A DNA stretch of 64,000 nt from Marsupella aquatica (lineage: Eukaryota > Plantae > Marchantiophyta). A program made the translations under genes and the position numbers. Positions 1,023-38,419 of this stretch are shown here, in pieces (within the stretch, counting starts at the first letter, position 1; each line of letters starts with the position of its first letter). The notes under the pieces are model-generated. The model ran no database searches. It saw nothing but the letters and a program-made list of their open reading frames with translations, and was not told the origin of the DNA. The stretch lies in NCBI GenBank assembly GCA_973895155.1, contig OZ316894.1:9324234-9388233 (forward strand), in the 5' to 3' direction.

Positions 1023-1480
1023 CACAACTACAATTCTTGAGGGTTTAACGTAATATGAGTTGACGCTAAACACGACGTGAACTTACCCTAAAGCAAAGTC
1101 AATTACAACGACATGAAACTGGGCACGTAAAGAGCCCAGACCCAGACGATCTCATTTACGTCATCCACAACAACGTTTGTTGCCACGTTTTAAGTGACGT
1201 AACATTCTTAACGTAGTTGATTAAGACATTCCAAGGGGAAGAGTTTACTAAGAGAATTCTAGTTGTTTACGTCCTTTAATACGATGTCAGAGTTAATTAC
1301 GTCGTACATAACGTGTTTACACGAGGCCTTATAAACAACATTTAGGTGAGTGTGTGTCGTTGGTCATATGGAACAACGTAATTAACTTAACAACGGCAAA
1401 TGAGACGTTGGATTCTTCCCATAGACGAGGTATACTAAAATTATTTGACTTTTGTGGGGATGTTAATTCCGACGTATGAT
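1023..1480 (+). repeat. Left TIR and ACGT-rich subterminal region of the CACTA element
   Basis: The TIR is followed by more than a dozen ACGT cores (cacgacgtga, tttacgtcat, caacgtttg, tgacgtaac, ttacgtcgtac, gagacgttg). Confidence 0.85.
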
Positions 1481-1999
1481 GTTGCTTAGGGCTCCATGGT
1501 TATGTGGGCAGGTTGTGCGTTTTAGGGGGTAGGGAATACATACAAAATACACAATCAAGTGTTCAAGATCAATACATGCCCATTGTACACAGTTCAATCC
1601 TGGAATGTGGCACCACAACATATGGGTGAGATCAAAATAGAATTGGGAAATTTACAAAATTCAGGAGGAAGTCGTGCAAACAAAACCCTAAACCCTATGA
1701 GCCCCATGCAAAACTGAGGTTCTCTAGTTGATTTTAGATCTATATCAAACAGTGACATCTTGAGGGACCTCAACGCCTGTAAAATGGCAAACTAGGCAAT
1801 CTTGGAGTAGTGATGGTGGGAGAGCCCTTAGAAGGAAGGGGTTCCCACACTTGTGTTCCCCTTCACCCTTTGTGTGGTCCTCACATGTTTTTTTGTTCTC
1901 TTTCCCTTCCCCACCGTAGAAGGGCCACCGTAGAAGGGGCCCTAACACTTTCTTCCTTCCCTTTTTCTCTATTCTCACTTGTGAGGTTTCCATCCATAC

Positions 2000-2022
2000 C
2001 TAAACCCTAAACCCTAAACCCT
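2000..2022 (-). repeat. Short interstitial telomeric repeat (TTTAGGG)x3 / telobox
   Basis: ctaaaccctaaaccctaaaccct. Shorter copies occur near 1683, 12964 and 15844. Confidence 0.75.
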
Positions 2023-4191
2023 TTCCCTCTTGTGCTTGCTTTCAACGTGTGTACGGACCCTGGTTGTACGAACATTAGATTTTCGACCATCTCAAAATCT
2101 GGAGTCTACGGGCTTGTTGGAAAAAGCTCGCCGAGCTGAATCCAACCATGTGTCACATGCCAAAATGGAGCTAAGACGGGGGAGATACAACAGATCGCAT
2201 TTTTTTGAGAATACGAGAGTTTTGAGGCCGTACGGATGTCCGTACGGTAGGAAGTCCCGACTTTGCAAGAGAATGAGGAGGTAGCAGCACATACAGGGAA
2301 ACCGTGATCCATGTTTTTCAAAGCCAGGGTCCCCCTGGTGTTGTACGGACGAAACGGTGAGAGACGATGCCCCTTGAAAACTTAAACGATCATATCTTGG
2401 CCGTTTGACCTTCGTTTTGTGCACCATTTACAAAGCCGTGATCAGGAAGAGGAGGGCTCGTCAGATCTGTTTTCAGAAGTGGATTCTGAGAAAATTTTAG
2501 TTTCGACAATTGTAGGGGCTCCCTCCTTTTACGGCGGACCGGTGGTGGCGATCAGGAGGATTGAGGCTGGTAGGCAGGGTAGATAGATAGGATAGGAGGT
2601 GGTGGACTCAAGTAAGTCCTTGTTTAGTAGAGTGGTAGTTGGCACCGTCGGTCCCGTAGTTAGATTAGGGTTTTTCACAACGTGTGTGTGCCGCACGCTT
2701 TAGGTTAGTTTATCTCTTAGATGTTTTTGACGGCGCCTCTAGGGTTGCCGCCGTTGTTGCCACTCCATGAGGGGTGCTTTGGTGTTTTTTTTCAGTATTT
2801 AGGGGGGAGCCCTGTAGTGAGAAGGGGGGGAACTCAGTCTAGTGTTGGTTTTAGGGAAGTTAGCTCATAGCCAGAAGGGGAAATCGAGCCAGAGTAGTGA
2901 GGAGAGGTGTAGCGCTTGCCCCAATGAGACAGGAGTTGGGCAGGAGGCCGGGTTGTCCTTGCAATGTGTTACCACTTTTTGCCAAAAGATATGGATTTGG
3001 TTTGATTCCTCAAGTTTTGGTGTGGCGTTATTTTTTCCGGCTCACGATTGTGTTCTTTCCCCAAGAAGTGTCTAAGGAATCCTTGCACGGATTGGTCAAC
3101 CATGTGAGTAGGGGGGGGGGGTGGTGACAGCACTCCACCAGCGACCAGCAGAAGTGTGTGTATGGCGTAGTCCATGGGACTTGATCAAAAGCAGAGCGGC
3201 TAGTCGATAAACTTGATCAAAAATTACATTTCCGGGAGCAAAAATAAACATATTCATCCTACATGCAATAGAATCCTAATAGCGTCCCTCCACGTTCCCG
3301 TCATACAATAACAAACAATTTTAGTAGGAGTAAATACGTATTTGTCGTGTAAATCGTTTGATAAGCAGGTGACACTCTCCTTCCCTTGTCTCTTTTTCTC
3401 TCCCTCCCTCTATCTCTCCCTCTCTCCCTCCCTCTATCTCTCCCTCCCTCACCTCTCTCTCTTCCTCCCTCTATCTCTCCCTCCCTCACCTCTCTCTCTC
3501 TCCCTCCCTCTATCTCTCCCTCCCTCGCCTCTCTCTCTGTCAAGAGCCAGTGTGCCTGCACTGCCCTGCTGTCCGCAAGCTAGAGGTGCCTCCTCCTGGG
3601 TACCCTCCTCATCGGGTACAATGTCCACCTGCTCATCCTCTATGATGGGGCGTGCCACTAACCCCTTAGGAGGGGTCCAATCCACCTGCACATGACATAT
3701 TCTATGTATCAATACATGCTGACACAATAGAGCTTATACAACTAGCATTGCCAAGGAATGTTGTTGGATTCCTACTTACAGGGAACTCTTCTGGGGTGGA
3801 ATTCAACTTGGCCCACAATGCCGTAGGGCCATACCGCTTGGAGTACAACCGTTCCTCCTTGCTAGGCTCAGCCTCTCGTCCATACTTGCGCTTCTACAGC
3901 AAAAACTAGTAACGTCGTAAGGGACATTGTAATGTACGCCGCGGAATGGGACATACATTCAATAACGTCGTTTTATGCCACGTAAAGACGAACTACATAG
4001 TTGTAACGTCGATGAGAAGACGTTTCACTAAAAGAATGTCGTTAGGGTGTATGTAAGAAGGAGGCTACGATGTGAGGGACGATGTTACTAGCGGATTTTG
4101 TGACGTAAAATTGGAAAACTCGACGTTTGCAGCAGGATTTCACCGCAAGGCTTTGGTACGCACAAACAGCAAGGAAATCAGGATGGGCACT

Positions 4192-4502
4192 TGTTAGATA
4201 TTGCTCTAGTCTTGTGACTCATGAGCTAACCACAGTTAGTCTAACTTGGGTTAGGACTTAGCTAATGTTAGTGGTAGTGCTGGTGTGCATATAGCTAGGG
4301 CTGATGCCAGACCCTGGTGGAACTTAGGCTCATTGTTACGAAGCTAGTTGAGAGATAGGGAGAGCTTGTGCTGTGGATGCTTGGTATGGCCGGTCGGCCT
4401 AGAGTGCAGTAAAGCTCTTGTGTGTTCCTGTGGACGTAGCCTCATGTGGAGGTGAACCACGTATCTCTCTGTGTCGACTATTGTGCGTTAGATGGTTCAT
4501 GG
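4192..4502 (+). repeat. 5' LTR of the copia element, 3'-truncated, no PBS visible
   Basis: Matches 9636-9946 with about 11 mismatches in 311 bp (counted by eye, mostly transitions). The last ~33 bp present in the 3' LTR are missing. Confidence 0.95.
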
Positions 4503-5774
4503 TTCTCGTCGGCGGCGTTCACTTTTCTTGTTGGAAACGGCACCGGTTAAGTAAGTAATCGGCTTTTTAAAGTTAAGGGCTAATCTTTGGCTTTTGAGGG
4601 GGTTTTAAATGGGTTTTAGTTGTGTATATACATGAGGTGTATACACACCTCGTACCGGCCCCTCATACTCCCCCTTGTACTTGCCGTTTCCCCCTCGCTT
4701 CCCGTTAAACCTAGCGCAGCGGTGAGCTGCGCAGCACCGGCCGGCGCCTCTCGCGCACTCGCCCGCATTTCTCTTGACCTCCCGCTTAACTCAGCGCCCC
4801 AGCCCCTTGTATTCCCTCGCGGTTGCCGATTGGCCCCTCCCGAGCCCCTGTGCACCCGTATACGCGACTGCGTATGTAGCTGTGATCCAGCTGCCGCCTT
4901 CGCCCCCTTGTATTCCCTCCGCGGCCCCGGTTTTAAACGTAGGTGGCTGCGGCTCTACCTGCTTGTGCAACTGTTTTTTTACTCTCGGCCCCCGCCTCAA
5001 TACCCTGTACGCCTCCTAGCCCGTGGATGCACCTTTGTTATACCTGTATTTTTAGTATTTAGGGATTAGCACCCCTTTAGGGCCCCTTTTTATGCCATTT
5101 TTTCCTCTCTTTTGGTTGTCCCTTGTGTTGGGACCTGCCGCCCTCCGTTTTAACCGCTCCAACAAGGGGAACGGTCCCCTATGAGACTTGTCGGACTGTG
5201 CGGGAATATTCCCCAAAAATAGAGAGCTTAGGGTTTAGGGCCGTCCGACAAAGATTCTGTCCGCCAAACGGTAACTTTTTTGGTTCTTTTTTGGCGAGGA
5301 CGTTGCCACTGGAGTTAGCAACGCTGTGCACCAATCACATCGCAATTTTGACGATGGGTTGTACTGGGTATTTTGGTTATTCTCCGAGGTGGTCAAAATG
5401 GGGGAGTTTCGCAAGGTTTTACCCACACCGACCAAAATTTGAATAACTTTTTCGTCGAATTTTGATTTTGATTTTGGCTTTCAATATTGGACTCCTAGCT
5501 TTGTGGGCTATGCGGCGGTGTTGAGTTTTGAGTTTTATGAGAAGTTTCAAAAAAAGACATTTTTTCGTGATTGTTTCATATGAGTGACTCGGAGGATACT
5601 GGAAGAATTGGCGTTGGTGGAGCTTCAGGATCAGGACGATCAGATGGTGAGTCTGAAAAGGAGCTGCTACCATTTGAGGAGGAACTAGTGACACCGGTAT
5701 AATCACCAGTGCGGCGTGCAGTGGAGGAAGTTGTATTACTACTAGAGCTATCGGTAGTAGGGAAGAAGAGGGAG

Positions 5775-8700
5775 ATGGCTAGATTTGGAGGAGTGAAGTT
5801 TGAGGTGGAGAAGTACAATGGTCGTACTGATTACTTGCTATGGGAGAAGCAAGTGAAGGGTGTTCTACGGGCCATGAGCTTAGCTCATCTGCTTTCATCG
5901 CGAGAGCAGTATGATGGAGAGGAGGAGATTTATGTGAGATAATGGAGACAGGAGTAGGTGATTGCTGTCAATGCAATGATGCTATATCTCAAGCCGCACA
6001 TCATCAAGCAGCTGGATGATTATGCAGATTGCGCGTCACTATTCAAGCTTCTAAGAGAGAAGTATTACCGAGAAGATGCGTCAGACCGGTTGTACAAGAA
6101 GTCTCTCTTGATGAGCCTCAGGCTCAAGGAAGGGAGCAAGATGCAGGATTACCTGGATGAGTTTGATAGTCTAGCGGTGGATCTGTCAAACCTGGAAAAA
6201 TGAGTTGAAGATGAGGATAAGGCCTTGCTTCTGCTAAGCTCCTTACCGCCGTCATATCAGGGCTTGAAACAGGTGCTCTTGTACAGAAATCTGAAGTCCA
6301 TTTCGTATAATGAGGTGGTGAGCTCTTTACTGTCTGATGATGCTCAGAAGAAGTTGGGTTAATCACAAACAGCATCTTCTTCTGGCACTGCGCTGAATGT
6401 GAACCGTGGAAGAGCAGCGCAGCGCACGAATGGGCAGAACAGGTTGAGATCTACATCATAGGGGAGATCTAAATCCAGAGGGAAATCGCAAGAGAGGAAG
6501 CCTTTTGCATGTTGGAATTGTGGCAAGCCTGGCCACATGAAAAGGGATTGTCAAGTAAAGGTCCGTACTGCATCTGCTAACGCGGCATCAAGCTCGCATG
6601 AGGTAGATTTACTCGATGATGATGACATATTGTGATGTCAAGGTTATGCTCTCAACGTAGTGTCAAATCCAGGTAGTGATGACTGGATTCTAGATAGTGC
6701 TTGTACTTTTCACATTTGCTCTATGAGAGATTTTTTTAGTTCTTACACGGATTCCAACGGGTTAGTGTTGATGGGAAATGGAATCCCATGTCAAGTTGTT
6801 GGACTTGGATATGTAAGATTTCAGATGTTTGATGGTGTTGTAAGAACGTTGAGGAATGTGAGACATATTCCCAACATGATGAAAAATCTTATTTCACTTG
6901 GAGTGTTAGAAGCAAATGGCCATCAGTGGAGTTCTGCTAATGGTGTCCTTCAGGTTTCAACTGGTACTAAAGTTGTATTGAAGGGAAAGAGACATAACAA
7001 TCTATACGTTTTGGAGGGCAGTGTAGTTTGTGATGAAGCCAATGTAACCTATCTCATGAGGAGACGGCCCGGCTCTGGCACTTTCGTTTGGGCCACATGA
7101 GTGAAAAAGTTTGGTTATTCTTTAGAATAAAGGATTACTTTCTAATTTATAATCTTGTAAGTTGGAATTATGTGAGCACTGTGTGTTAGGGAAGCAACAC
7201 AGGAAACCCTTTGGAGTTGGAACTCACACCAGCAAGGAGATACTTGAGTATATACATAGTGATGTGTGGGGTCCAGCCCCTACTCCCTCACATTCTGGAC
7301 GGTTGTAAGGAGCAGGGGATTACCCACCATCTCACAACAAGTTATACTCCTCAACAGAATGGTGTTTCTGAGAGACTCAACCGAACACTATTGGACCGCT
7401 CGAGGAGTATGTTGAGTCAATCATGTTTACCACATGAGTTTTGGGCTGAAGCTGTCAACACTACAACTTATTTGGTAAATTTTTCTCCATCCAGTTCTAT
7501 TGGATTCAAGACGCCATTTGAAATGAGGTATGGGCGTCCAGCAGATTACTCACATCTGAGGATTTTTGGATGTGATGCTTATGTGCTTACACCTTCCCAG
7601 CTGCGATCCAAGCTGGAGTCCAAGTCGAAGAAGTGCATTTTCCTTGGCTATCAGAAAGGTGTGAAGGGTTATAGGTTATGGGATCCAGTAACCTGTAAGC
7701 TAATTGTCAGTAGAGATGTGTCCTTTAATGAATCCAGATCATCAAAGAAGGGGGAGAGTTCTCAAGACTCCCATACTGACAAGGGAAAATCTCCCATCCC
7801 GGACCGGGTTGAGGGGGAGATTAGTCATGATGCCATTCATGATAGGAGAGATGGAGAAGCTCCGGGCTTGAAGCTGGTTCCTATGATGGAACAAGAGGAG
7901 TAGATTGTTGCTGGGGTACCTCAAATTCAACCAGCAGCAGTAGATCAGCCTGAGTCATCTACTAGAAGAACTTCAAGTTGTTCTACTAGAGCTCCTACCA
8001 GGTATGGTCAATGGGCAGACTCATCTAAGCTAGATGATATTGACATTGCACCTGATGATGATGACATGGCTTTAATCTTGGAAGAAGGAGAGCCGTCTTT
8101 GTATAGTGAGGCTTGTGCTTCAGAGCATAAGCATGAGTGGAATGCAACAATGCAGAGGGAGTTGCAATCTTTGAGTGACAACAAGACATGGGAGCTGGTG
8201 GAGCTTCCAAGAGGTCAGCAAGTGGTGGACAGCAAGTGGATTTACAAGTTGAAGGACAGTCCTTCAGAGGGTGGAGATAAGATCTACAAGGCAAGGCTTG
8301 TTGCCAAGGGGTTCACTAAGGAGAAAGGAGTGGATTACAATGAGGTCTTTTCACCGGTGGCTAAGTATTCCACAATTCGGATCTTGTGTCAGCTTGTTGT
8401 GCTTTTTAATCTGGTGATGGATCAGATGGATGTTGTTATTGCTTTTCTCTATGACAACTTGGAAGAGATGATCTTCATGAGACAGCTGATTGCTCAAGAT
8501 GAGACATGCTGATTGTGGCTAAAGATCAATCTGAGGTTGACAGTCTCAAGGCAAAATTGAGTTCTGAATTTAGGATGAAGGATCTTGGTAAGGCCAAGAG
8601 GATCTTAGGGATGGAGATTTTTAGGAACTCTGAAACTGGATAGTTGTGCTTGAGTCAAGGCCAGTATGCGAGGAAAGTATTTGCACGATTCAACATGGAG

Positions 8701-9439
8701 AACTGTAAGCCAGTGAGTGTTCTTTTAGCTTCACATTTCAAGTTATCATCGGCTTTCTCTCCTACAGATGCTGTGGAGAAAGGTTTGATGGCTAAGATTC
8801 CTTATGAGAAGGCAATAGGCAGTCTGATGTATTTGATGACTTGTAGTAGGCAAGGTTAGCAGATTCATGTCAAATCCAAGGAAGGTACATTGGGAAGCTG
8901 TGAAATGGATTCTCAGGTATGTGAGGGGAACACAAGACTATGGATTACTATTTTATGCCAGATCAGATAGAACGTTAGTTGGCTATGTAGATTCTGACTA
9001 TGGAGGCTGTCTGGATACAAGGAGGTCTACAACTGGGTTTGTATACACTCTTGGAGGAGGATGTATCAATTGGAAATCTACCTTGCAGAAGTGCATATCT
9101 TAGTCTACTACAGAAGCAGAGTATGTTGCAGCAGCAGAAGCAGCCAAAGAAGCAATTTGGTTGGATAAGTTGATCGCGGAGATGGGTTTAGAGCATGACA
9201 AAATGACTATAAACTGTGATAGTCAGAGTGCTCTTCACTTGGCTGCTAACCAGGTGATGGATAGCAGGGTGAAGCACATTGATATCAGGCACCATTTTAT
9301 CAGGCAAGCAGTGTCTGATAAAACTTTTGACCTAGTCAAGATTGATGGAAAGCTCAATCACGCTGATGCCTTTACCAAAGTGATTCCTTTGGAGAGTTTC
9401 TCAAGACACCGTGCTACTTTGTAGGTTTTGCAGTTGTAG
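5775..9439 (+). pseudogene. Copia gag-pol polyprotein pseudogene
   Basis: Gag MARFGGVKFEVEKYNGRTDYLLW, Zn knuckle CWNCGKPGHMKRDC, protease WILDSACTFH, integrase YTPQQNGVSERLNRTL, RT YKARLVAKGF...FSPVAK, RNaseH GYVDSDY...KHIDIRHHF. Many stops and frameshifts, with deletions near 7300 (integrase core) and 8490 (RT YVDD region). Confidence 0.97.
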
Positions 9440-9635
9440 TGCAAGTAGAGTTATTTAGCAATGTGTGACTATTTGTATATGGATTACTCATTCCTGTTAG
9501 GCTACGGCTTAGTTCTAGTTAACCCTTGTGGTTTTTAGGGGGAGACCTGGTTTGGTGATTGTCTAGAACTTCCCGCTGAGGATTCCATATGGTAGCATTT
9601 AGTTTAGTCCCCAAGACAAGAGTCAAGGGGGAGTT

Positions 9636-9979
9636 TGTTAGATATTGCTCTAGTCTTGTGACTCATGAGCTAACCACAGTTTGTCTAACTTGGGTTAGGA
9701 CTTAGCTAATGTTAGCGGTAGTGCTGGTGTGCATATAGCCAGGGCTAATGCTAGACCCTGGTGGAACTTAGGCTCATTGTTACGGAGCTAGTTGAGAGAT
9801 AGGGAGAGCTTGTGCTGTGGATGTTTGGTATGGCCGGTCGGCCGAGAGTGCAGTAAAGCTCTTGTGTGTTCCCGTGGACGTAGCCTCATGTGGAGGTGAA
9901 CCACGTATCTCTCTGTGTCGACTATTATGCGTTGGATGGTTCATGGGCTTGTTGTTACGAATGTCGTCTATGCTCAACA
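9636..9979 (+). repeat. 3' LTR of the copia element (344 bp)
   Basis: TGTTAG...TCAACA, directly after the polypurine tract and followed by the TSD. Confidence 0.97.
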
Positions 9980-11578
9980 GCACTTACATAGGTTGCGAGG
10001 AAGCCTCGCCATCCTCCCTGTCCCTAGAAATTGGTCACTACAAGCCGGCCAGTATGCTTTCGAGCTACTGTTGCTTTGTCCCCCATGCGCACTCGCTTTC
10101 CTATTGCCATGTCTGGGTCTGCCTCCAACTTGCTGACGATCATATTGAAATCAGCCTCAGTCATCCCTTCAGGTTTGTGGTACTCCCCTGTCTGCAAAGA
10201 TTTTGATTTTTGAACCTTGTTTTTCCACCTAAACCTTCTCTCTGCCAAGTGATTTACAATCTTTTGCCTCATGTGACGAAAGTCAATTTCTCTCCCATTG
10301 TGGAACCTAGCCTGCACATCATTAAGGAGTGTCTGCAATTTCTTGGTGTTATGTGACAAATCCTTCCAGGTTGTCCAACCCGGGCTGCAATGTTTTGCAT
10401 AGCAGTCTACACTCGATTGGTGAGTGCCTTCTCATCAAGAACATACGGTTTTGCATCAAAAGCTGCCAAAGTTATGGTCGGGAGCTCCTCTCTATTGCTG
10501 GGTTTAGTTGCAGCTTGCTGGGCAGAATTTGGTGCCTGAGGACAAGACGAATGTGACTATTGAGGTAATTGCCTCCTTCCCCTGTCCGCCTTTGGGTCTA
10601 CATCTACACGTCTACGCTCCTTTCCCTTCTCTTTTCGTCTTCTCCTATCAATGCTACTACTTTTGCTCCTAGAAGGGGATCTATGCTTTCTCTTCCTACA
10701 TTAATCCCGCGCCCCCATCCTCTGGCTCATATCTGTCATGTGGGATCCTGACCTGGCTTTTGATAGGAGTCCCAGAATGAACCTGAGAATCAAGCGCCAT
10801 TCCTAAGAAAGCTAGATCATCCCAACCATCATCTGGTAGCAAAGGGAACAAAGGTAGAGGATTCACTGAAGCCTCACCGAGGTCCCTCGAGCACTCTGCA
10901 GTGGGAATCTGTTCATCCTTGTCCATGGCAAGAGCATTGGCCTTGATATTGCCTAGGTACTCCAAAAATTGGGACTCTTTGCTTCCCACTCCTCCCAAGT
11001 ATCTCCAACTTTGATTGAAAGCGTTGATCAATGGGTGGGTGGAAAGCAAAGCTTGACACACCTTCTCCAACTCCTCTGAATCGTCCATGGCCACCTTGTC
11101 TGCATCAAAGTTCACACTGAAAGGAAGATAGGTTGGTCTAGACATTGGAAGGGCAACTGTCAAACGTAGAGGTCAGAATTGAATGAGAGAAAGAGAGAGG
11201 AGGGGAGTTGGGGTCCAAGATGTTGAATGTGCCTCACATTTGACTATTACCCTGACGTTTTCCTTTGGAAAATGCCGAGCTACACGCAAAACCACAAAGA
11301 ACCCCCGTTCTCCCAATGTAATGTCGTTTTTAACAACGTTCTTTTCATAAACCCTAAATAGTACGTTCTGGGGGATGACGTAAACGTCATAGTACGTCGT
11401 AAAATAGGGGGTTACGCTGTTCTGGGTTTATATAAACGACATTACATTGGGGTTTACGTAGGGTAGGAAAACATGTGGGGTTTATACAACGTATAAAACT
11501 CCATAAGTTTTTAGGGCTTGTTGCCATTATTTGAATGGTACTAATTGGTATCTGGCATGTATGTTGTTGCAGGGCCAT

Positions 11579-14500
11579 ATGGCAACATATGGGTCTTCCT
11601 CAACATACTATGACCATCGTGATGGAGGTACTTGTCACTGACGTAGACATGGTCATCATAGTAGGGAGAGGGATGAGTCGTTGGGGAGGAGGAGAGATCA
11701 GTCATGGGGGGGACTAGTGATGAGCCCCAGGAGAGGAGGAGCCATGGATCCAGGGATAGGAGGAGGGATGGGTCACGACGGAGGAGGAGGAGGGATGAGT
11801 CGCCAAGGAGGAGGGATGTGTCCCTAGGGATGACGAGCCATGACTCAGGAGGGATCACTCCCAGGGTAGGAGGAGGGTTGATCCCCTCAGCGATGAGTCA
11901 CGGGAGAGGAGGAGGGATGACTCACCATCTAGGCGCCATCGGTCCAGGCATCACCAACGCAGACATTGGCGGGATAGAAGGAGAGATACTAGATCCTTGC
12001 GTCCTGCACACCAGTATCACGACCCATCCACGCTGAGGAGGGATTTGGAGACGCTATGGCTGCCATTCAGGGGATTGGACCTATCCGTAAGATGCCTTGC
12101 CCATGTAGGCGGTGCAAGGGAGTTGTATGTCACGAGAGGACCACTGTCCTTAGCCATTTAGGGATCCATGGTCGTTATATACCGCCCACACAAGAGGTAA
12201 TTATAAGGTTTAAACATTTCAATTATTTAGTTGCTTTCTTTTTTTACCTAACTAGAAGTTGTCTAGGCTGCAATTGTTCATGCTTTCATACGCAAATTCT
12301 GAAGTTGTCCTGCTGGTCACATGTGGACAGATTCCTATTGTAGTGCCTTTGGCTGTGGACAGCATGAGAGAGATTGCGAGGCGTGCGATCACCCCTCTAG
12401 TACCCCCATCAGCATTGTCTGCCACATTGAGGGCTATAGACTGTGTTTTTGATGGGATTGTGGTGCAAGTGCACCTTATTGAGAGGGGAGTAGTGGTGAC
12501 CACTAGACTGAGGTCGATGGAGTCTCATCCACCTAGGATAGTGCCGCCACGTTGTCCTTTTCTTGATGCACCTTCTTTGAGAGTTGCGAGACAGTTGCGA
12601 GGGAGAGCCTTGGATATCATAAAGGACTCCTTCCCTGCCCAGTTTGGACTCCCCGACGACCTTCCAGTCAGGGAACCTATCATAGTCTGGGGTCGGCCGT
12701 GGGCCCTCCTCCCATCCACATTGGGACCTGACGTTGGCCTTGGCGTTTTTGCACTTGTGGATATAGTGGTCCCTCATGGGTGTGCCCCTGACGATTTACC
12801 TCAGTTTGGCCCAGAGATGGCAAATCTTGTCTCGACAGTGTCCGACCTTTGGTCGATATGGCATGTCACTGAAGATGGACCCTAGGTATTCTCGGATGGA
12901 TGGTTATCCACCTCGCATGGGAAACTTGGTGGGCTACATCAATAGCATTGTTGGGTGTCGGCGTTTAGGGTTTAGGCCAAACGCTGAGTGGCACGAGTAC
13001 CATGATGCGTGTCACCCACGTTTGCCCATGGCATGCACACATTATGTCTTGACGCATGCCACCCGCACCATTAGAGCAGGAGATTAGATTTTTGTAGATT
13101 ATGATTGGCATTGATCACAACTTTATATGTACATAACCTATTCAATACATGACATTCCTTGCACATATCATTATTCAAGCTTCATTGCACCCTTCATACT
13201 CTTTGTCTAATTATGAGTTTGCATTGGATATGCTTACTTATATATGTAGGATGGTGCCAATATTACTCCTACACCGCACCCATCCATGATGACTACATCA
13301 GCCCGTGCCTTCCACACTTGAGCCACATTACATTTCAGTGACGACGATGATGATGATGTCCATGATGTGGATGATGATGTGGATGATGATGATGATGATG
13401 TGGACGATGATGATGATAAGTACCATGATGCATATGATGTCGAGTTTGATGATGTAGTAGAGGATGAGGGGCCTGCACCTATTCTTGAAGAGGAAGCTTT
13501 TGCCCACCTGGTTGACATTCACTTTGGACCACATGCACCTGACGCTGATCACCCTACTATGGAAGTTAGTAGACCAGGAGGATTGGGACCAGCTCGAATC
13601 AGAAGCCAAAACTCCACTATTCGAGGGTTCTCCAACCTTGAGGTAGAGAAGCTTACGACTTCTCTAATTGTGAGAGTGTAATTGCAGGTAGTACCTCATG
13701 TTCTATTTTGATGAACTAATTGTGGTTTTGCAAATGCAGGTTGGGTGCCACTCTCTTGATGTTAAATTTGCAAGGAGTTTTCAATGGTTCGGATGTCCAT
13801 ACAGATGCACTATTGTAGTTGTTCCACAAGAAATTCTTGCCCCAACCAAACACTCTTCCTGGATGTGTGAGGGAGGCTAAGAAGTTACTTGTCTCCATTG
13901 GATTGGCTTTGGAGTCTATCCATATGTGCCCCGTTGGTTGCATCTTGTATAGAAAGGAGTATGCTGAGCACACTCATTGCCCAAAGGAACGGTGTGGCCT
14001 TCCACGATATCGACCAGACACCATTGGGGACAAAATTCCAGAGAAGGTAAATTACTGATGCGAACTCATGTGATTAGCGTCCACATACTCAGGTGCAAAC
14101 TTAACATCCAACTCAACGAAGCACATTCACATCTTACGTCTTCAAATTCGTTGATTTATTTATTAACATTGTATTAACATCAATGTGAATTGAATACGTC
14201 TTCTCAGGCGATGTAAACCCATTTTACGTCTCTTCGTGTGACGTAAAGTAACGTCTCTTTGTTGTTTACGTCATAGAAGACGTGGCTAAAATAAGATAAC
14301 GTGTTCGTAAATGACGTTAGGGTTCTAATATTGTCGATTCAAATGGTTTCACTGTTGTTATTATAGGTGTTGAGGTATTTCCCTATCACACCCTGGCTGC
14401 AACAGTTATATCGACAAAAACGCTTATCCACACTACAGACTTGGCATGCAGAGAACAAATCTCCACCAAGGATTATGAGGTACCACCAAGATAGTCCAGC

Positions 14501-17218
14501 ATGGAAACACATTGATATGACTTGGCCTCAATTTTCCCAGGAGCCAAGAAATGTCCGGCTGGGGTTGGCAATAGACGGTGTAAACCCGTACAAGCAACGG
14601 CGGAAGCCTAAGTCCATTTGGCCGGTTCTCTTGATTAATCAGAACATCCCTCCATGGTTGGCAATGAAAAAGGGCCATGTCCTCCTCCTTGCTATCATAC
14701 CTGGTTCTGAGGCCTACAAGAATCCAAATGTCTGCTTGGTACCAGCTTATGAAGAGCTACAAAACCTGTGGGAGGTTGGGGCACCTACCACAGATGTCAC
14801 TCGGGCTCCGAGCAATGGGAGGATATTCCAGATGAGAGTGATGATCACCCATTGCACCACCGATGGTCCAGGTAATTCACAAGACAACCTAGAGCATTTT
14901 TCTAATTGCATTGTATTGTACAATGTAATAGAGATAATGACATATTCTATGGACCCAAATTATCATGTGCAGGTATGGGAACAATATCTGGTTTGAAGGT
15001 GGCAGATTATTCAGCTTGCCCTTCATGTGGTCCTGAGTTGCATGGGAGGTACTCATCACTATTGCCCAAAACCACATATGAGGAAAGTAGGGTCCACTTG
15101 CCAATGGATGATCACTTGCGGCGAAACACAACTCATTGGGTAGAAAGTGAGTTAAGACCATGTCCCAATGGCCCTTCGGCTGAAGGGCAAATCCAATTGG
15201 CAGAGATGGTGGAGGCAAAGTTACTCAAACCCAAAGATTGTGGAGTAAATCGCCGCTTAGCTTTGTGGGACTTGCCTTATTGGAGGGTAAGTGAGACAAA
15301 GCAAAATAATGGTTAATTTTTCTAATTGCAAATTGGAGTCTTCACTGAAACTATTGCTATTGAGAAATTTATTAGTGAACTCCAACATTATTGTTTTTTC
15401 ATGCTCCAAATCCTCCAGGTCCGGTGGTTGTTGGACCCCATGCACATTGAAGTGAATGTTGCTAAGAATTTGTTGAAGCACATTTATGGACGGAATGATA
15501 CTCGTCAAGTCCGAGAGGATGTTGAGAATGTAGGAGTTGTGAAGTCTTGCTGGATGACAAGTACTGGGGGGAAACCACCTGCTCCTTGGGTATTGCCAAA
15601 GGAGACATTAAAGCAAATTAATGCGATGATTTGTGAGATGAAATTCCCTAGCCACTATGGAGCCGACTTTCATGGGTGCACTAGCAGAAATGACCACATG
15701 CCCCCAATAGGGCTAAAGTCTCATGATTATCACAAGTTGATTCAACATGTGCTGCCTGCTGTCTTGTGTTGTTGTGATGACTTGCGAGAGAGGCGCCTAC
15801 TTCAACTCACCATTTACGACATGCGCTCTATTTTCCTAAGTTTAAAACCCTAAACCCTAAGTTTAAAACTAGAGACTTGTTGTTTTGGGCTTAATTCTTT
15901 TCATTACCAATATTATAATTAATTAAGTTGGTAATTTGGGCAACCGCTTGGTGTGATTGTGATATTAAATCAATTGGATTGTATGAGGTGGAATATAGGT
16001 GGGTATGCGCTAAGGAGATAAAGGAGTGTGAGATTCCTTTGATGAGGGAGAGGTCAGCACGTGTGATGTGCAATATGGAGAAGGTGTTCCCTCCTTGTCT
16101 CTTTGACATGCAATTGCATTTGCTATGTCACCTCATGGATGAGGTAGCTATTGCTGGTACAGTTCATGCGCGGTGGATGTATTGGGTTGAGCGCTTCATG
16201 AAAGTGCTCAAGTCCATGGTGCGTCAACCAGATCAACCAGAGGGAGCATGACAACAGGATACATTATGTCTGAGTGCTCAGGGGGGATGATAGGGAGTTT
16301 GGACCCTACAACTCCCACAACTTGGGAAGAGGCACAGGATGAGGACAATGGTGGGTTGCGCTTGATGGGTGCGTCAAAGAAGCGGTCACTACATGACGAC
16401 ATTTTTTGACGGCAAATCCACAATTATGTGTTGGAAAACCGCCCTGACATGTCAGCTTGGAGGGAGTTGTACAGGTATGAGGCATTTAGATTGTGAAGTT
16501 TGACTTGTAGTTGGGGAGTACTTTTTTGTCCATAGGATACTGCAAATTTCTAACAATATTTGTGTATACAAATGCCAGGGCATGGAGGGAGCGACAACCG
16601 GTTATTGCAGGACATGTGCACACAATTGCATCATTCTGCGTATGGGCATTGGAGCACATGGAGAGGGTCCTGGCAAAGCATGGGCCCACATCCATCCCGA
16701 TTGATCTTCAGAACATCATTAGGGGGCCATCGATGTGGGCAACAACTCATACACACATGTATGAGTCGGGGCACCACTTTCGGACTTGGAGGACAGACCA
16801 TATGAAAAAGACAACATGTAACTCACAAGTGTTCATGTTGACAGACCGAGGTGATGTTGAGGTTCCTTATTGTGGCACTGTATTGGACATTTTAGATGTT
16901 GACTACTGTGTTAGAGGTGTGGTGGCACAAGTCCATCATACCACTACTGTGTTAGAGGTGTGGTGGCACAAGTCCATCATGTCACCTCTTGTGAGAGCCA
17001 CCATGGTGAAAGATGAGTGTGGATTTTATCGGGTGGACATGACTCGTGTGTCACCAAGCGGGACTGAGGTTAGTGATACCATAGTTTTTCCTAGCCAAGT
17101 GGATCAGTGTATTATGGTGCCCATGCAAACTATGAGAGGGTGGTCCATTGTCAATCCCATCTTCCCACGACGGAGGAAGGGTTTGATGCAATCAACAATT
17201 ATGGACGATGCTGATTGA
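11579..17218 (+). pseudogene. CACTA transposase (TnpD/Tnp2; transposase-associated domain, Transposase_21, DUF4218/DUF4216-like regions), multi-exon, decayed
   Basis: Predicted exons: 11579-12196 (R/S/D-rich, then CPCRRC..V.SHL..HG), 13250-13642, 13740-14046 (LPQPNTLP..IHMCPVGCILY), 14367-14871 (LRYFPI..DSPAWKHID..RNVRLGLAIDGVNPY), 14973-15286, 15419 to about 15836 (DPMHIEVNV, GLKSHDYH), 15999-16474 (FPP..HL..HARWMYWVERFM), 16579-17218. Several stops and frameshifts. Confidence 0.93.
12331..13114 (+). pseudogene. SET-domain (lysine methyltransferase-like) exon carried inside the CACTA transposase gene
   Basis: SET motifs in the expected order: GLGVFALVDI; MDG..RMGNLVGYINS; PNA; ATRTIRAGD*IFVDY; natural stop TGA at 13112-13114. 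One frameshift near 12810 and one in-frame TAG (13085-13087) at the conserved Glu position. Confidence 0.85.
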
Positions 17219-17675
17219 TATGACCATCACCACTGTCATGATGCTTTGGATGCATGTATATTGGCCGTAGCCATCCTTTACATATATACAGATCTGGTTG
17301 GACAGTCCTCATTTACGTCATTTATATAATTAAACGTCCCATTTGTAACACCCAAAATGACGTAGAAAACCCATACGTCGTCACAAAACCCCACCAAAAA
17401 TGACGTAAACCCCTAACTTAACGTCGTTCTTATGTAGCCCTACACAACGTGATACTAAATTGTGACGTAAATACACAGCCCTAAAGGACGTACATTGTGG
17501 AACGTCGTATTATGATATGTAAACTATTTTGGGACAACATGGAGGACAACGTAACGTGTGAGGGGCGACGTTACGCACAATGCACACACTGAAAGGGCAC
17601 ATTCACTGGCACAATCAAAATAATACAATCATGGGTGTCTTTATTAAGGTGATATGAACACACAAGTTATACATT

Positions 17676-18400
17676 TCACAACACATTGTCTTTCCACCAA
17701 AGCAATCCTAACCTATGCGAATCATGGAACCTAAACCCCACCACCAGCTGCGATTTGAAGTATTGTTGCTTAAGGGGTCCCTTCACCAGACCAGTAGTAC
17801 TCCTCATCGGCCTTCCTTGCTTTGTAGGAATCACGCCTCTGGCTTTGGTTCCATTACTTCCGCTCAACCGCTTCCCCAACCTTCAGCCTTTCAGCCTCAA
17901 CCTCAACTGCACAGCTTTTCTTGCAATCGTACAATACAATCCCAAGCTCAGTAGGAGATAACTCACATTTAGAGAAGGTAGGTGGATATGCCTCACCATC
18001 ATCAAGCTTGGGCAAATCATCAAGGATCTCATGATCACCCGGCTGCAACAAGAAGTCTCCTGGATCCAACTCCTTGTTAGCCAGAATGGAGCACTCAACC
18101 CAACGGATAGAAATGAAATGCACTGTCTCCGCAAAGTGCTCAATCAATCCAGGGTAGTCACTGAAGTGCTCAACAACATCTTTCCAAGTATAGGCCAACA
18201 AGTAATCTATCTCTAGGTACACAACTTCTCAATAACACCTCCACGACAAAAGAACCCACGCACAATCTTGTCCTCTTCACCGAGAGGAAGGAAGCAACAA
18301 TGCACATCCTTGAATAACTTGTGCACCATAGCTTAGCACTTTCTATCCCCCACAGAAATTTCTCCCTACTCAAGATGAGAGCTCACTCAAAAACTCTTGA
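17676..18400 (-). pseudogene. Unidentified accessory ORF near the right end of the CACTA element
   Basis: Protein-like minus-strand frames (YLEIDYLLAYTWKDVVEHFSDYPGLIEHFAETVHF...) linked by frameshifts and stops, bounded by two ACGT islands. No family recognised. Confidence 0.45.
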
Positions 18401-18559
18401 ATGCAAGTCTTGGAAGGTCTTGGCAGCTATGAACCAAAAGCCACGGGTAGAAAACCCAAGTCAGCAAGGAATTTGTCATTTACATCAACCAAAATGATGT
18501 CTTGCACGTATCATGTGGCAGAGTAACTCTCAAACGCCGATGAGAGCTCCATAATATAT

Positions 18560-18859
18560 TTAACCTTGCAGATTCCTACGTACTTTTAAACGTCGTCCAA
18601 CAAATTGTATATTATGACGCTCTGGACGACGCAATTAATTTTACCTCTTTCTAGACGATGTTTTATTACCCGGATGAGGAGACGTTAATTTTTGGTCGTA
18701 TCACACGACGTAAAAATAGTTCCGATTGTCGTGCCATATTCTACGACGTTGGCCTAACGTCTTCAGCTATATGGAACGACGTCTTCTTCGACGTGATCCA
18801 ATTGAACGTCTACGTTGAAGACGTTCATAGGGCACGCAACGTTAAAAATTGTAGTTGTG
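18560..18859 (-). repeat. Right ACGT-rich subterminal region and TIR of the CACTA element
   Basis: Dense ACGT cores (aaacgtcgtcc, cgacgttgg, gaacgtctacgttgaagacgttc) ending in aattgtagttgtg. Confidence 0.85.
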
Positions 18860-20650
18860 CAACTCCCAATGCCAATCTAAGTGTTTTGTGTGCGTTACCA
18901 ACTTAGCTCAGTGCCTTTGCTAGTGCTATGTTTCATACAAGTATCTCCATATTAGTCTCCACCAGATGGTTTTTCCGGAGGCCTGGGCCATAGAAGAGCT
19001 CAATGTCGGAGTAAGCAATGTTGGAACTAAGTGGAGTGGACTACAACAATGCAAACAAAGCTGTAGCCACTGAAAGACAACAAAATTTGGAGCTTGTAAG
19101 CTATGTAAAAGTAAGCAAGTGGTGGAGAGCAAGTGACATAGTCTTATTGAGCTAGTGACATAAAAACATTGCACCCATGACATAGTCTGATTTGTAGGAT
19201 GGTTGTAATTTATTTTAAGCATAAAACTAGTGATTTTGTGAAGTTATCCCCTTACATACATTCAGCAAAACAGAAGGACTAAGAAGCAAGCTTCATTTTA
19301 ATAATTGAAGGACTCAGAAGCAACCAGCTGGAAAGTGAAGGGAGGAAATATGGAAGTCCAAGGACAACTGAAGAACGAGAGGAAAAAGGAAAGGCTGGAC
19401 AAAAGGAAGACACAAACAATAAATTGAGCCATTTCTTCTCTCGACCAAAATTTCTGTTCTACAAAAAAGTTGAGGTTTGCATCTTCAACTTTTTGGAAAA
19501 CGGTGGTATTATTCTTGTATGCATCACGTTCTCACTCCAAATGACTAAACTCGAAAAACTTCTGTAAATACTTCATGACTAACTCGCTGTACTCTTGTAC
19601 ATTTCTTTCCAGGTTTAACTCGCTGTACTCTTGTACATTTCTTTCCAGGTTTGTTTACGTGAATGGCGGATCTGAAATCTTTCTGTGAGGAGAGTTTTAA
19701 TACGATTTGAGACAATGATCGTTTAGGGACACGCAAGTGTACGCAGTGTGAAATTGCTCCATTGAGACGATGATAGTGAGGGACACGCAAATGCATGTAG
19801 TGCGATTGGTGAAATTGCTTTATTGGGTTAAGTGGAACATCATAGCATTTACTCCGCAGTCATAGGTTGGCATAATTGCGATGCCTCATTCCAGTTTCAT
19901 CATATCAAACATAACGACGCAGTAGGACCTGCCATAGCGAGATCGTTCACATCGCTACCGCCTTTTACATAAGCGTGACCAGTATCCGACATTGCTCTGA
20001 TATATGCCCTCTCTTTGCCATGAATTCTTAGGTGTCTCATTGCAACCCAAAACTTACTACTACAACTACTGGTCCATCCAAGTTCCTGCTATATACAAGT
20101 GATAGGAAAGACAAAAAACTAGAGTCCGATGGAAAACAGCGTGATGACAATCATCCCTAAAATCCATGTTCGTTTAAGGCCTTGCTATGCTGGTGGCTGT
20201 TGAAAGAGATCTCTATGCAGCATCAAATTTTATACAAGATGAGATGGTGGACCTGGAACTTCTTGAGTTCCAACAGTGGGATTCCAACACGGTACACCTA
20301 AAGTGGGTCTCAGAACCGCTTAGTTCCAACAGTAAAATTCCATCAAAGTAGACCTGACTATTTAGAGGAAACAAAATTGAATCCATCAGATCAAATCATG
20401 ACAGGATAATATCCGTTCTATTCGGTCACTGGACCTAATTTATACAGCTTTCCTCAACCCCATCCTGAAAGGTCCCTCTGATAGCGTGTGCTTGGAGGGG
20501 GAGGAAAAAGGATGGAGTTCTGTACAAAGACTAGACATTCACTGTCAAAGAGCTACAGATGACAGCTTTGTCTTCAAATGGGTTCTTAAGAAAAGGACCT
20601 GCACATTTTTTGCTGCAGCCCAATTCCAAAAATTGCCTACCAATCCTGAT

Positions 20651-23600
20651 CTACCTAATCAAAAATTGATGATTCGACTGAGAAGATTGTGCTTGCCAGT
20701 GCGCATTCCCACCCATATGAACCTGATAACCATTTGTGCTATATTGTTGAACACGGCCATCTGAGCCAGGGGGATGTCTCCGTCCCCTATGATTCTGTCT
20801 ATACCGCTCCGTTCGTTGACCTTGGTGACCACCTGAAGGAATGGATGGAGAAGGCGATGTATGATGGCTTGTTGGCCGACTTTCCACTGCAGGGTAGGCT
20901 GTCTGAGAAGGCTCCACGAATTCTGCATAGCCTGTATTCAAAGTTTGTGGGTATTGAACTCTACGCTCCGCATCTATTGTCGGAAAGTCCACCTCCCTGT
21001 GGACATAACCACCTCCGCTATAACCAACATCAGGAGGGTAAGAGGTCAGAATATCTTCTTTCCTGTATCCAGAGTCCCAGTCCCTGTACCCAGAACCAAA
21101 ATCGGCGTAACCAGACATTGTATGGCCAGCCACCTGCTTCATGCTATGACCAACAGGGATAGATCTGGAGTCGAGTGGAGGATATTCCATTGTATATCCG
21201 TTCATACTGGGCGTCTCATAACGACGCCCTGAATATCCACCTCTGTTCTCACCCTGGGCATGGGAATCAAAACCACCACTAAGGTTTGCAATTCTAGTTG
21301 ATTGTCCCACCTTCCTGTATCCATTGGCTCTGTGGGCAGGACCCTGTCCAGCTTGATTTTGCTCAGCATAAACTGGTGCAGATGGCTTTTGACCCCAAGT
21401 CCCAGCGTTACACAAAGAACTATCTGCGAAACTTTCATGTCCTCTGTTACCTGGAAGATTGGTTCTTCTCTCATTCGCAGGTTGCGACCAACCATTTCCA
21501 CTTAGCCAGTTTCCGGTACTTAGTACCGTCACACCGTGATGTGTACCTCTGTGCCTTTGCCTAATAGATCCAAAGAGATAAGCTTTCAGGTCTTTGGCTT
21601 CCAGGACATCATACACAGGATCCTTAAGGTTGGAAACAGTCGACTGTAAAACCTGATAAATAAGCTCGAACTCTTTCCTAGAAACAGACCGAGCCACATT
21701 TTGAGTACGATCCGCGAAGTCCTCCACCTGGTATTGTAAACATGTTTGTAACGATAGTGTTTAGAAATGAGGGTCTAGGAATTTGCAGCATTTCACAATT
21801 CCTTAGACCTAACAAGCGATAATACATATGAAGTCGATGACCTTCCAGGAGCAAGATTGACAGAAAATCTCATCCTTTCGGCAATCCAACCGGACAGGTG
21901 AGGTCTTACAGAAATGCAGCCGATATGATTTTTTGGCCAGATCTTCGAGATCCACCTTCCTTCATACGTGCTGGAACACAACCCCTGCCCCCACATGCTT
22001 TCCACAGCTAACAACTGCGCCACAGTTCGGACATGGAATTTTAGAATTTCCTCCAATAATTCAACAGGGAGTTCAATGGCCCACTTGAGGACCAACACAA
22101 CGTCAACAAAACAGATCACATTAACTCCACTGTGCATACCCTAACCCCCTCCTCTCTTTCTCCTTCGTAGTGTCAGGGCAGGTCCCCAAACATAACCCGC
22201 TTGCCAGGGGTGTTCCAAGTCTCATAATCCGCAGCCAGTCTCGCCTAGTCTCATAATTTCAAAATCTAATGTGAAAAAACAGTGTCGGGGTTACGCTTGC
22301 TAACCCATGGCTGTAACCGCCTTGGACTCACCACCCTCGGCGATTACAGCCCATACCCCCCTAAAGGCCATGGTTTACCCTACACCAATATCATTTGTGA
22401 GAATATGCAAAGAGTACAAATCAAAGCTGGAACAATCCTGGAAAATACCTTGAGAAAAAACGAACCAAACAGTTCTGGGACACTTTCAGTGTTGTCCTTC
22501 CCAAATCCCCTCTCCTTATATTCCTTTACGCGAAGTTCCACAATTTGAAGACAGCTTCCAATTGCCGGTAAATGCAGCCCTGCTCTACCACAAGCCATCC
22601 GCGTTATCGACCGTAACTAGCATAGAAGTTTTTACCACAAACGGCCTGTGTGCAGAAGCCCTGGTTCAAGTATTATGGAGACTCAAGCATATCTCTATCC
22701 AGTCACAAGTACGACATTGGCACATTGTTCTGTAAAACAACCCGACATTATACCAAACCCCCCAATATCATGGAGAAACCGGGGACAAGCAATAAACTCA
22801 CCTTCCATGAAGACCGAAAATGGTGGAAGAATTGCAGGAGAACGAGTCTGTTGCACAGTTGCAAATTATGAAAAAAATGTAGCATGATCATTACACAGAT
22901 CCAAGGTTTGCTACACCTTCTTCTGCACGGACAGAACCATAATCTTACAATTTTCTAAACAAACATAAATTCATACATCGACCCTGTAGTCTTCACAGTA
23001 GGCCAGAGGATTGCAAACCCGTGGGAAATGCATTGAGAAGCAGTAAGTCAGCACGCACTCTTCAAACCGCTTAACGAGAGAGAAGAGCGAATGATAATGA
23101 CACAAGCTTATATCACTGCACCATGCTGTCTCCCAACGAATCACAGATAGAAGACAGTGCAGCTTTTCGAATTTTAAACAGGTAGTATCCCTCATTGTCA
23201 TAGGCTTCTCATTGCTATAACTTAACCTTGCCTCTTGTGATCTTGCTCAGCTCAGAGTTTATGGTTAGAGTGCAGAGACCTCGCCCTAGTCGTCCCAGGA
23301 AACTTTGGTTCTAAAGATATAGATATCAGTTTGACAGACGTGACATCTGCTAGTAAGCAAAACCATCAAAAGGATTGTCCCTCCATGCGACACGAGTAGA
23401 AGATCTCGTTACCTGCAAATGAAATGCAACAAGAAGACATATTGACAAGGAATTTAAGGTCCCATTTTTGGAGCTGTTGACATTATGCTTTTTGGCCCAA
23501 GCTTTCACCTGCACACATAGCCAAACATCAGCTCTTGAGAAACGCTAAGAAATTATTGGACGTGTCATACTCGATCTAAAGAAGGATGCATTTTGATGAG

Positions 23601-36626: not shown

Positions 36627-38419
36627 TCAGTGAACTTCGAGCGAAGATCCTGAATCATCCACAACAGAAGTCAGCTCAACAACTAGTAAATTGAGAAGAG
36701 AACTTGACGAGCATGTGATGGTTATTATAGAAATTATCAGCCCCATGCGTGAAAAATTATCAGTCCCAAACGTTTGATACAATAGAAAGTTGTTTAAACT
36801 CACCAGTTGAGAATCTCAGTATTTGCAATTCTGAGAGAAACGCGTCTGTATTCGCACAGAACTAAAACTTTATGTGCCAGTTGGAAGTGTTTGGGAATCC
36901 ATCACATCTACATCCACAACGGTGCCCACGGCCAAGTTGAGACAGGTAAAGAAGAACATACAAACTAGGAAGTGAACACCTGTTGACAACGGCTTAGCCC
37001 AGAAGTCCAAAAGAATGGATCAATGAAAAACTTTGAGCATAAACATGATTTCTCTGGCCATGGACCTACACAGAAATTTAGCTGTAGAGACTCGAAACAT
37101 ATTATAGTGGTCAACCACAAGTCCACATATCCTCTGATAGAGACTGCTGACCAGATGGGGTGCACAAACAGTGTGGAGAAGCTTAATGTGATGCTCACTT
37201 GATAAATTACGCAGAGAAATGCGAGCATCTTCACTTGCAATAGCTGATTTTTGCAACCAGTACTGTCCCTATTGTCAGAGCCAAGGAAGAAAATCCCAAT
37301 GATCAGATACAGGCAAAAGGTAGATCTCAAGCCGAGCACCATGTATCCACACAACCATTTTGTCGGGTAGAAAATGGCAAAGTCATTAAAAAGGACCTTG
37401 GAAAATGTTACCTTCTTCATATCTACAGCAACTCCATAACCTGAACAATACATTTGCCCTACGAGACTTTGCATGTCAACTTCACCGCTCTCTGCAGCGT
37501 TCAAAGTGGCCTCAAACCAGCGTCTCTCGCAATCAGCGACTACATCTTTCAGAGGCAATCTTCGAGATGAATCTCCTAGTGACGACAACTGCGCTTCCTT
37601 TTTGCTCTCGGAGAACTCACCCGACGTCATTCTGTGGAAAGCAGCAGATTTCGTGACTGTCATCCAGTCAGCGTATGCAAAGTAACCAAATATTTCATTT
37701 CACTTTCTTTCCAGAGAATCCCAAATAATTACGTCATTCTCCAAATACTTTAGATCAGGACGTCACTAAAGCTGTGGATCAATCTGTCTCTTGCACGAGC
37801 TAGAAAGAAACTGACACGGATTACTGATATCGAGAAATCCTGACCAGCAAGTGGTACAAATGGGTTTGCAGAGAAAGGCAATTGTACCGTTGCTAGTCAC
37901 ATCAGTAAGATATCGTCAGCTTAACAATATGTGAACCGAAGGAAGTGGACATCCGACACCGCGCCCTGGATGTTGCTATAATTCAGCATTTAGGGTTGAA
38001 AAGCCATTAAGTCATTCCTTCACTCAGTTGCCCAATTACCCTGATCAAGTGACTGAACGACAATCTGAGGAAGATGAACACGAACTCCAGCATAGCAGGC
38101 ATCTTCGAAAATTTGAACCCTCGGAAGTGTGGGAAAGAAGTCTTCCAGAACTTAGACATTTTATTTAATTTCATTTTAGGGGAAACTTTGTGTAACTCAT
38201 TTCACATAAACAGTCTTCCGGGAGGTTCACGAATTCATGCCTGTGAAATTTTGTAGAATTTAAACGAAAAGCAATGGCAAAAGAATCCGTCAAGTCAAAA
38301 CAACTCAATCCATCCATAAATCTAGAACCACAGAGCTGCTTTTCAGAATCTACAAACTCACCACTCGCCTCGTCGTCTCCCAGACTTTGAAGCAAAAGCG
38401 GGCCAGACAGCAAAAACAT
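36627..38419 (-). CDS. Small plant Sel1-repeat / HCP-like protein
   Basis: LPLKDVVADCERRWFEATLNAAESGEVDMQSLVGQMYCSGYG matches the conserved plant single-Sel1 family. Exons 38419-38362 (inferred), 37656-37412, 37268-37199 and 36682-36627 have consistent phases. The start could instead be the ATG at 37630. Confidence 0.85.

Follow-up and report, generated by a model that had tools for sequence, protein, structure and literature searches.

The question raised by a 64,000-nucleotide stretch of Marsupella aquatica DNA (contig OZ316894.1, positions 9,324,234 to 9,388,233; hereafter the window) is why a large DNA transposon should carry short patches crowded with the tetranucleotide ACGT in its non-coding parts. 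The transposon, a member of the CACTA/EnSpm superfamily, contains six such patches or islands: one at each end (islands 1 and 6), one in an intron of an accessory gene, here called gene A (island 2), one between gene A and the divergent transposase gene (island 3), one in a transposase intron (island 4) and one in the gap between the transposase gene and a small gene C, whose 3' ends face each other (island 5). As far as can be judged from sequence, the islands are probably family-specific binding arrays for an anti-silencing or transposition protein encoded by the element itself, TnpA-like in kind and with the internal layout known from VANC.

The six islands, 1,716 bp in all, hold 63 of the 152 ACGT tetranucleotides of the window, the others being spread over the rest of the element (12 in 10,334 bp), a retrotransposon nested in it (10 in 5,787 bp) and the flanks (67 in 46,163 bp). 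A blind scan of the 64 kb for at least six ACGT per 300 bp returned exactly the six islands as peaks, and among 100 dinucleotide shuffles of the window only one contained a single peak of this size. When each island is compared with its own shuffles, ACGT is enriched with p values of 0.0002-0.0006 in five islands and of 0.048 in island 2, while for the longer word WACGWC, described below, p is at most 0.0007 in all six. These counts, scan and shuffles bear out what an earlier note on the same DNA had claimed, namely that there are six ACGT-dense islands in non-coding compartments. The islands are enriched over a dinucleotide-matched background (most weakly island 2), and all six peaks fall in the two ends, two introns or two intergenic gaps. 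The intron that holds island 4 is 320 nt long, has GT-AG borders and lies between the transposase peptides KIPEK and VLRYFP; the one that holds island 2 is also of the GT-AG type and measures about 302 nt after removal of the nested retrotransposon. ACGT is absent from five further introns of the transposase gene (97-162 nt, with one donor site placed only approximately) and from the intervals covering one gene A intron and the introns that flank a SET-domain exon of the transposase gene. The start of island 6 is probably to be placed near 18480, where one motif word has decayed in this copy. As a separate observation, the transposase coding region from 14367 to 17215 is nearly free of ACGT (1 in 2,849 bp; observed-to-expected ratio, o/e, 0.09).

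The repeated unit is somewhat longer than ACGT. A C after the core or a G before it is found in 44 of the 63 cases, and ACGAC is also enriched 13-fold in the islands, so that the word is the asymmetric (T)WACGWC, which is present on both strands. It is often followed directly by GT, so that two words overlap, and ACGTCGT occurs 12 times. Pairs of ACGT 12-15 bp apart are favoured (18 against 8.4 expected, p=0.012) and pairs 4-11 bp apart are avoided (7 against 15.8 expected, p=0.003), as would be expected of a protein footprint, both comparisons being post hoc. Multiples of three are also over-represented among the distances between ACGT cores (54%, p=0.0008, again post hoc).

A clustered word at both termini is found here as it is in the TnpA systems of maize En/Spm and Arabidopsis Spm1, with which the element shares its superfamily, the presence of a short CpG-containing word, the family specificity of such words and a separate accessory gene. 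According to the available text of 10.64898/2026.08.24.746577, TnpA-Spm1 binds clusters of CCVTCGCAAA, needs them to be dense and causes CG hypomethylation, binding and hypomethylation being limited to the ends; here, by contrast, four of the six clusters are internal and as dense as the terminal ones, and the word is shorter and ACGT-cored. Clusters distributed over introns, intergenic gaps and termini are the layout of VANC and its VANDAL elements in Arabidopsis: the available text of PMC5735166 describes how VANC21 binds motif clusters in intron, intergenic and terminal regions, how tandem repeats amplify them, how motifs are gained and lost between copies and how words differ between families. 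The layout has its counterpart here, and signs of the other features are seen in two relatives and in island 4, as described below. VANDAL elements are nevertheless of the MuDR type and the present element is a CACTA, and the words given there for VANC21 and VANC6 (YAGTATTAY and AGTTGTMC) have no CpG, unlike the CpG-cored word of the islands. The subterminal repeats of the CACTA elements Tgmt*, Tgm1 and En-1, as far as described in the available text of PMC2613891, are likewise repeated words inside both terminal inverted repeats (TIRs), where an element protein presumably binds them, although they are 12-20 bp long and found at the ends only, against 6-7 bp and internal positions as well in the present case.

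When metagenome contigs were scanned with the SET family of the transposase gene, three loci (L001, L002 and L003, each shorter than 2.2 kb) emerged from 95 candidate stretches, whereas the corresponding scans of viral contigs and prokaryote genomes gave no matches. The gene order is common to all three, a first exon with a zinc motif being followed by SET; the zinc-motif exon is recognized weakly by Pfam Transpos_assoc in L001 and L002 and by eye in L003. Since L001 begins at the first exon, the region upstream can be compared in L002 and L003 only. In L002, with 44% protein identity to the query, the opening 240 bp of the locus precede the transposase start and correspond in place to island 3; they hold nine WACGWC (mean of the shuffles 1.0, p=0.0002), against four in the remaining 1,955 bp. 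The word and its compartment are thus shared with a distant relative. Three of the upstream words sit in a 21-bp tandem repeat, so that amplification of the word by tandem repetition can be read from the L002 sequence. In L003 (36% identity), WACGWC is missing from the first 120 bp upstream of the transposase gene, and TCGCAA, of the TTCGCAAA type, is found there three times (p=0.003; the repetition was noticed before testing and lies at a contig edge). This word resembles the Spm1 word (10.64898/2026.08.24.746577, available text).

Close copies of the element, available as contigs from two organisms, cover islands 3-6, island 3 being covered by contigs of X3 and X4. Near 14182, in island 4, other copies are longer by about 35 letters, which include additional motif words. 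These inserts, together with the 21-bp repeat of L002, speak for gain, loss and tandem amplification of motifs, although the islands of the window itself show no tandem array. Reduced contig depth over the islands and gene A was discarded as evidence, since depth cannot rank the parts of the element and divergent copies skip ordinary introns too.

On the preferred reading, the binder is most likely the gene A product, judging by analogy with TnpA; a zinc-motif/SET isoform of the transposase gene, acting as a partner, is less likely than gene A. Many copies of the element protein would bind each cluster cooperatively. Such binding would bring the two termini together for the transposase and release the terminal promoter; at the clusters inside the element, promoters and introns would stay unmethylated or open in their immediate surroundings, and the element genes could be transcribed and spliced even with the remaining element methylated. 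By landing on the arrays, the protein would shield the element from silencing. Other CpGs would decay, those of the motif being kept by selection for binding, and new copies of the word would arise through short tandem duplications.

The history of methylation can be approached through the close copies. Where the window copy differs from the others with the best support, the change is mostly C>T or G>A on the window side and falls at CG and CHG, a bias that past methylation would leave, and the methyl-cytosine decay proposed earlier for the element body finds support in this bias; the TGA at 13319, which had been cited as an example, is an in-frame stop at a site not among the copy differences listed. 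The further proposal that the islands keep their CpGs is true of the CpGs inside the motif and fails for the others: within the islands ACGT reaches an o/e of 10.2, while CpGs with neither A before nor T after stand at 0.36, against 0.53 in the window. Island DNA is poor in CHG as well (o/e 0.11-0.71, against 0.93). In a count against run X1, into which every A>G (10) and T>C (4) majority difference between 17240 and 18900 entered, one of 45 CpGs was lost in islands 5 and 6 and six of 23 between them (p=0.005). Two of these six losses are situated on the margin of island 6, one of them in a motif copy, and for this reason the signal weakens when the boundary is moved. The lower decay of island CpGs is therefore suggestive at most, borderline and boundary-dependent, and could reflect selection rather than low methylation.

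Several observations weigh against the interpretation of the islands as arrays for an element protein. With island 6 starting at 18480, the CpG losses become 3 of 50 against 4 of 18 (p=0.07), and further island CpGs have been lost at 18567 (X2-X4) and, in island 3, at 11284, while the motif CpG at 18580 is gone in some copies. The decayed look-alikes ACATC, ATGTC, ACAAC and ATGAC are enriched 1.8-2.8 times in the islands, which indicates that the motif does get deaminated. Neither a 10.5-bp phasing of the words nor tandem repeats were detected in the islands of the window. Among the loci outside, the upstream compartment is visible in two of three and the other five compartments in none of these short sequences. 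TGACGT and ACGTGGC cores are possible targets of host basic leucine zipper (bZIP) factors. The gene A protein gave no significant Pfam match, Transposase_24 included, two homologue searches were empty, there was no Foldseek match and the best Atlas score was 0.75. Finally, the precedent itself differs, the tested TnpA acting at termini only (10.64898/2026.08.24.746577, available text).

Among other explanations, the most probable one, although itself unlikely, is that host bZIP factors of the TGA/OBF/HBP-1 type bind the arrays, which would be methylation-sensitive enhancers that switch the element on, with no need for an element-encoded binder. ACGT is the core bound by bZIP factors, and the contexts of the 63 cores include 13 TGACGT, 9 TGACGTAA and 3 ACGTGGC; three islands flank likely promoters, and the occurrence of the same word in L002, at its protein distance, fits a conserved host factor. 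However, the G-box CACGTG is not found among the 63 cores, by which G-box arrays are ruled out, and the base after ACGTC varies (G 17, A 13, T 12), which together with the enrichment of ACGAC is unlike a TGACG binder. Moreover, the arrays are also found in introns and in the convergent 3' gap, and L003 has a different, non-ACGT word at the same place, the latter being a weak argument.

Next in probability, and likewise improbable, is a purely structural role, in which the islands would be extended subterminal repeats bound by the transposase or an accessory protein, with the internal clusters helping to fold the 18-kb element and methylation playing no part. Two islands do adjoin the TIRs, subterminal repeats are described as cis-determinants of CACTA excision in the available text of PMC2613891, and the borderline state of the CpG-retention evidence suits this explanation; against it, the internal clusters occupy promoter and intron positions typical of anti-silencing targets (PMC5735166, available text), and both types of word seen, in L002 and in L003, are built round a CpG. 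Very unlikely, and largely refuted, is that the islands are neutral, whether as CpG-rich patches free of methylation, as micro-duplications or as the remains of a single nested mini-element: the motif-bearing 21-mer of L002 is plainly tandem-duplicated and the spacing in multiples of three is unexplained, but one word recurs in six separate compartments and a distant relative, the depletion of non-motif CpGs amid abundant ACGT rules out generic CpG islands (the CpG-rich stretch 4500-5300 in the nested retrotransposon has the opposite pattern, with a non-motif CpG o/e of 1.14 and one ACGT), and copies of one nested element are ruled out by the failure of the islands to align beyond the word (best local alignments of about 15 bp, near a motif-preserving null, with 2 of 21 pairs at p=0.01).

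As to the proteins that might read the arrays, the earlier description of gene A as TnpA-like was not confirmed. Gene A recalls TnpA by its position, and its basic helical segment recalls CACTA accessory proteins, a resemblance that the Pfam, homologue, Atlas and fold searches did not corroborate. The segment is modelled as helices with low confidence (predicted local distance difference test, pLDDT, 58.6), the best score of the fold searches is Z 5.4, and the missing fold match does not exclude a helix-turn-helix fold; accessory proteins of the TnpA type have a tandem tri-helical DNA-binding domain of that fold. The lack of a detectable homologue is a further difference from TnpA, whose relatives are described as restricted to flowering plants in the available text of 10.64898/2026.08.24.746577, TnpA-like domains being reported only from these also in that of PMC13547354. 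No vanC-like gene was identified in the element. Gene C has one homologue, 77% identical, and gave no Pfam or PDB sequence match; its Atlas leads all score below 0.9, several of them being BRCT (weak), and a likeness to BRCT is seen by eye only. In other copies, gene C is without the stop and the frameshift of this copy.

The SET domain announced in the earlier note is better founded. Eighteen SET relatives were found (one further match was unrelated), the Pfam SET cut-off is passed by 10 of the 16 scanned, and the family model (pLDDT 76) matches SET structures at an expectation value (E) of 4e-7. The motif residues G127, G129, N204 and Y257 are conserved, with S where H usually follows N. Sequence relatives, Pfam and the modelled fold together show that the SET domain is real. 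It is encoded by a cassette exon that keeps the reading frame of the transposase gene. Splicing from exon 1 to SET is in frame in the window, L002 and L003, where the SET exon of the relatives spans 850-1689 (L002) and 995-1780 (L003); skipping to the next transposase exon is in frame in the window and L002. An exon 1-SET isoform is therefore predicted, SET being likely an alternative terminal exon. SET methyltransferase domains are also carried by HarbingerS and MuDR families of Phytophthora (cited in the available text of PMC12730594), which belong to other superfamilies and another host kingdom, while here SET is a cassette exon in a CACTA transposase gene.

The features of the element are collected in the table below. 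Its assignment to CACTA/EnSpm follows from the presence of all three characters of the superfamily, a TIR beginning with CAC, a 3-bp target site duplication (TSD) and a Tnp2 transposase, the latter with Pfam matches to Transpos_assoc (E 9e-4), Transposase_21 (PF02992, E 1.5e-36) and DUF4218 (PF13960, E 1.1e-22). The TIR starts with CACAA and not with CACTA; a start of CACTA or CACTG is the flowering-plant form of the superfamily. The CACAA start fits the rule CAC..GTG, given for the superfamily in the available text of PMC12730594. The right end is confirmed by contigs of the public runs X1, X2 and X3, which pass into unrelated flanks beyond 18859.

Features of the CACTA/EnSpm element in the window (positions are those of the window; long terminal repeat, LTR).
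Feature	Position	Strand	Remarks
CACTA/EnSpm DNA transposon	1023..18859	.	17.8 kb including nested retrotransposon; TIR, TSD, Transposase_21, DUF4218
Left TIR	1023..1035	+	13 bp perfect, CACAACTACAATT; TSD CAA at 1020-1022
Island 1, left subterminal motif array	1040..1480	.	14 ACGT, 9 WACGWC
Gene A, broken accessory gene, divergent from transposase gene	3452..11145	-	reading frames; basic helical segment 10027-10404
Island 2, gene A intron	3905..4130	.	7 ACGT, 9 WACGWC
Nested LTR retrotransposon, Copia-like by eye	4192..9978	+	LTR ends, TSD GCACT; inside gene A intron holding island 2
Island 3, between divergent gene A and transposase gene	11250..11500	.	8 ACGT, 7 WACGWC
TnpD-type transposase gene (Tnp2)	11579..17218	+	broken in this copy; Pfam Transpos_assoc, Transposase_21, DUF4218
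SET-domain exon in transposase intron 1	12331..13114	+	broken in this copy; Pfam SET E 0.008
Island 4, transposase intron 14047-14366	14090..14330	.	9 ACGT, 7 WACGWC
Island 5, between convergent 3' ends of transposase gene and gene C	17310..17580	.	13 ACGT, 12 WACGWC
Gene C, small broken gene, right end of element	17770..18329	-	one homologue, P0001
Island 6, right subterminal array, probably on promoter side of gene C	18480..18845	.	12 ACGT in 18560-18845, one more at 18506 and one decayed at 18484
Right TIR	18847..18859	-	13 bp perfect, CACAACTACAATT; TSD CAA at 18860-18862

The 3' end of the nested retrotransposon is marked by contigs of other copies, seen as loose ends at 9979, and its insertion point is a few bases off a gene A splice donor. 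The common part of its LTRs, about 310 bp, is 96% alike (11 differences in 308 bp); the 5' LTR runs on into the different, CpG-rich stretch 4500-5300 mentioned above, and a related LTR piece is found at 42902-43088. Between 1500 and 3400 the element contains about 1.9 kb without motif words, moderately CpG-rich and with AAACCCT repeats; this stretch, which has no match in the rest of the window, may be a further insertion. A 41-bp tandem duplication at 16902-16980, in the final transposase exon, is missing from other copies. Outside the element, a 299-bp unit is present in three near-identical tandem copies at 44687-45584, and a degenerate tandem array of 18-19 bp units (AAAAGATGT...) lies at 62187-62863. 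Three host gene fragments, at 20651-25100, 36965-37699 and 56224-56649, we take by eye to derive from a nucleotidyltransferase, a SEL1/TPR-like protein and a formyltetrahydrofolate deformylase. By its gene content the host is a plant.

The element thus joins to the CACTA superfamily, to which it belongs by all defining tests, a VANC-like layout, without being a VANDAL and without being assignable as yet to the TnpA system. In the literature covered (titles and the beginnings of abstracts, subscription journals and Repbase lying outside), no report was found of internal ACGT arrays or of a SET exon in a plant CACTA element, although the words of nine Spm families might include a similar one. 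A more far-reaching proposal, tentative and rather unlikely as a whole, is that a CACTA lineage, probably of non-flowering land plants, has its own sequence-targeted chromatin system, in which an element protein would read CpG-cored arrays at every promoter, gap and enlarged intron, the SET isoform would write a protective histone mark, and word and reader would change together between families (WACGWC as against TTCGCAAA).

Sequence-specific anti-silencing by transposons has been shown only for a few flowering-plant systems, of the TnpA kind at the ends and of the VANC kind inside. If the interpretation of the islands as binding arrays is true, the internal layout would have arisen a second time, perhaps outside flowering plants. 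For testing, the element offers one clearly delimited word, six mapped patches and a choice of three proteins, one of them with a SET domain. Should the SET isoform be recruited to the arrays, the transposon would be carrying a compact, programmable writer of chromatin.

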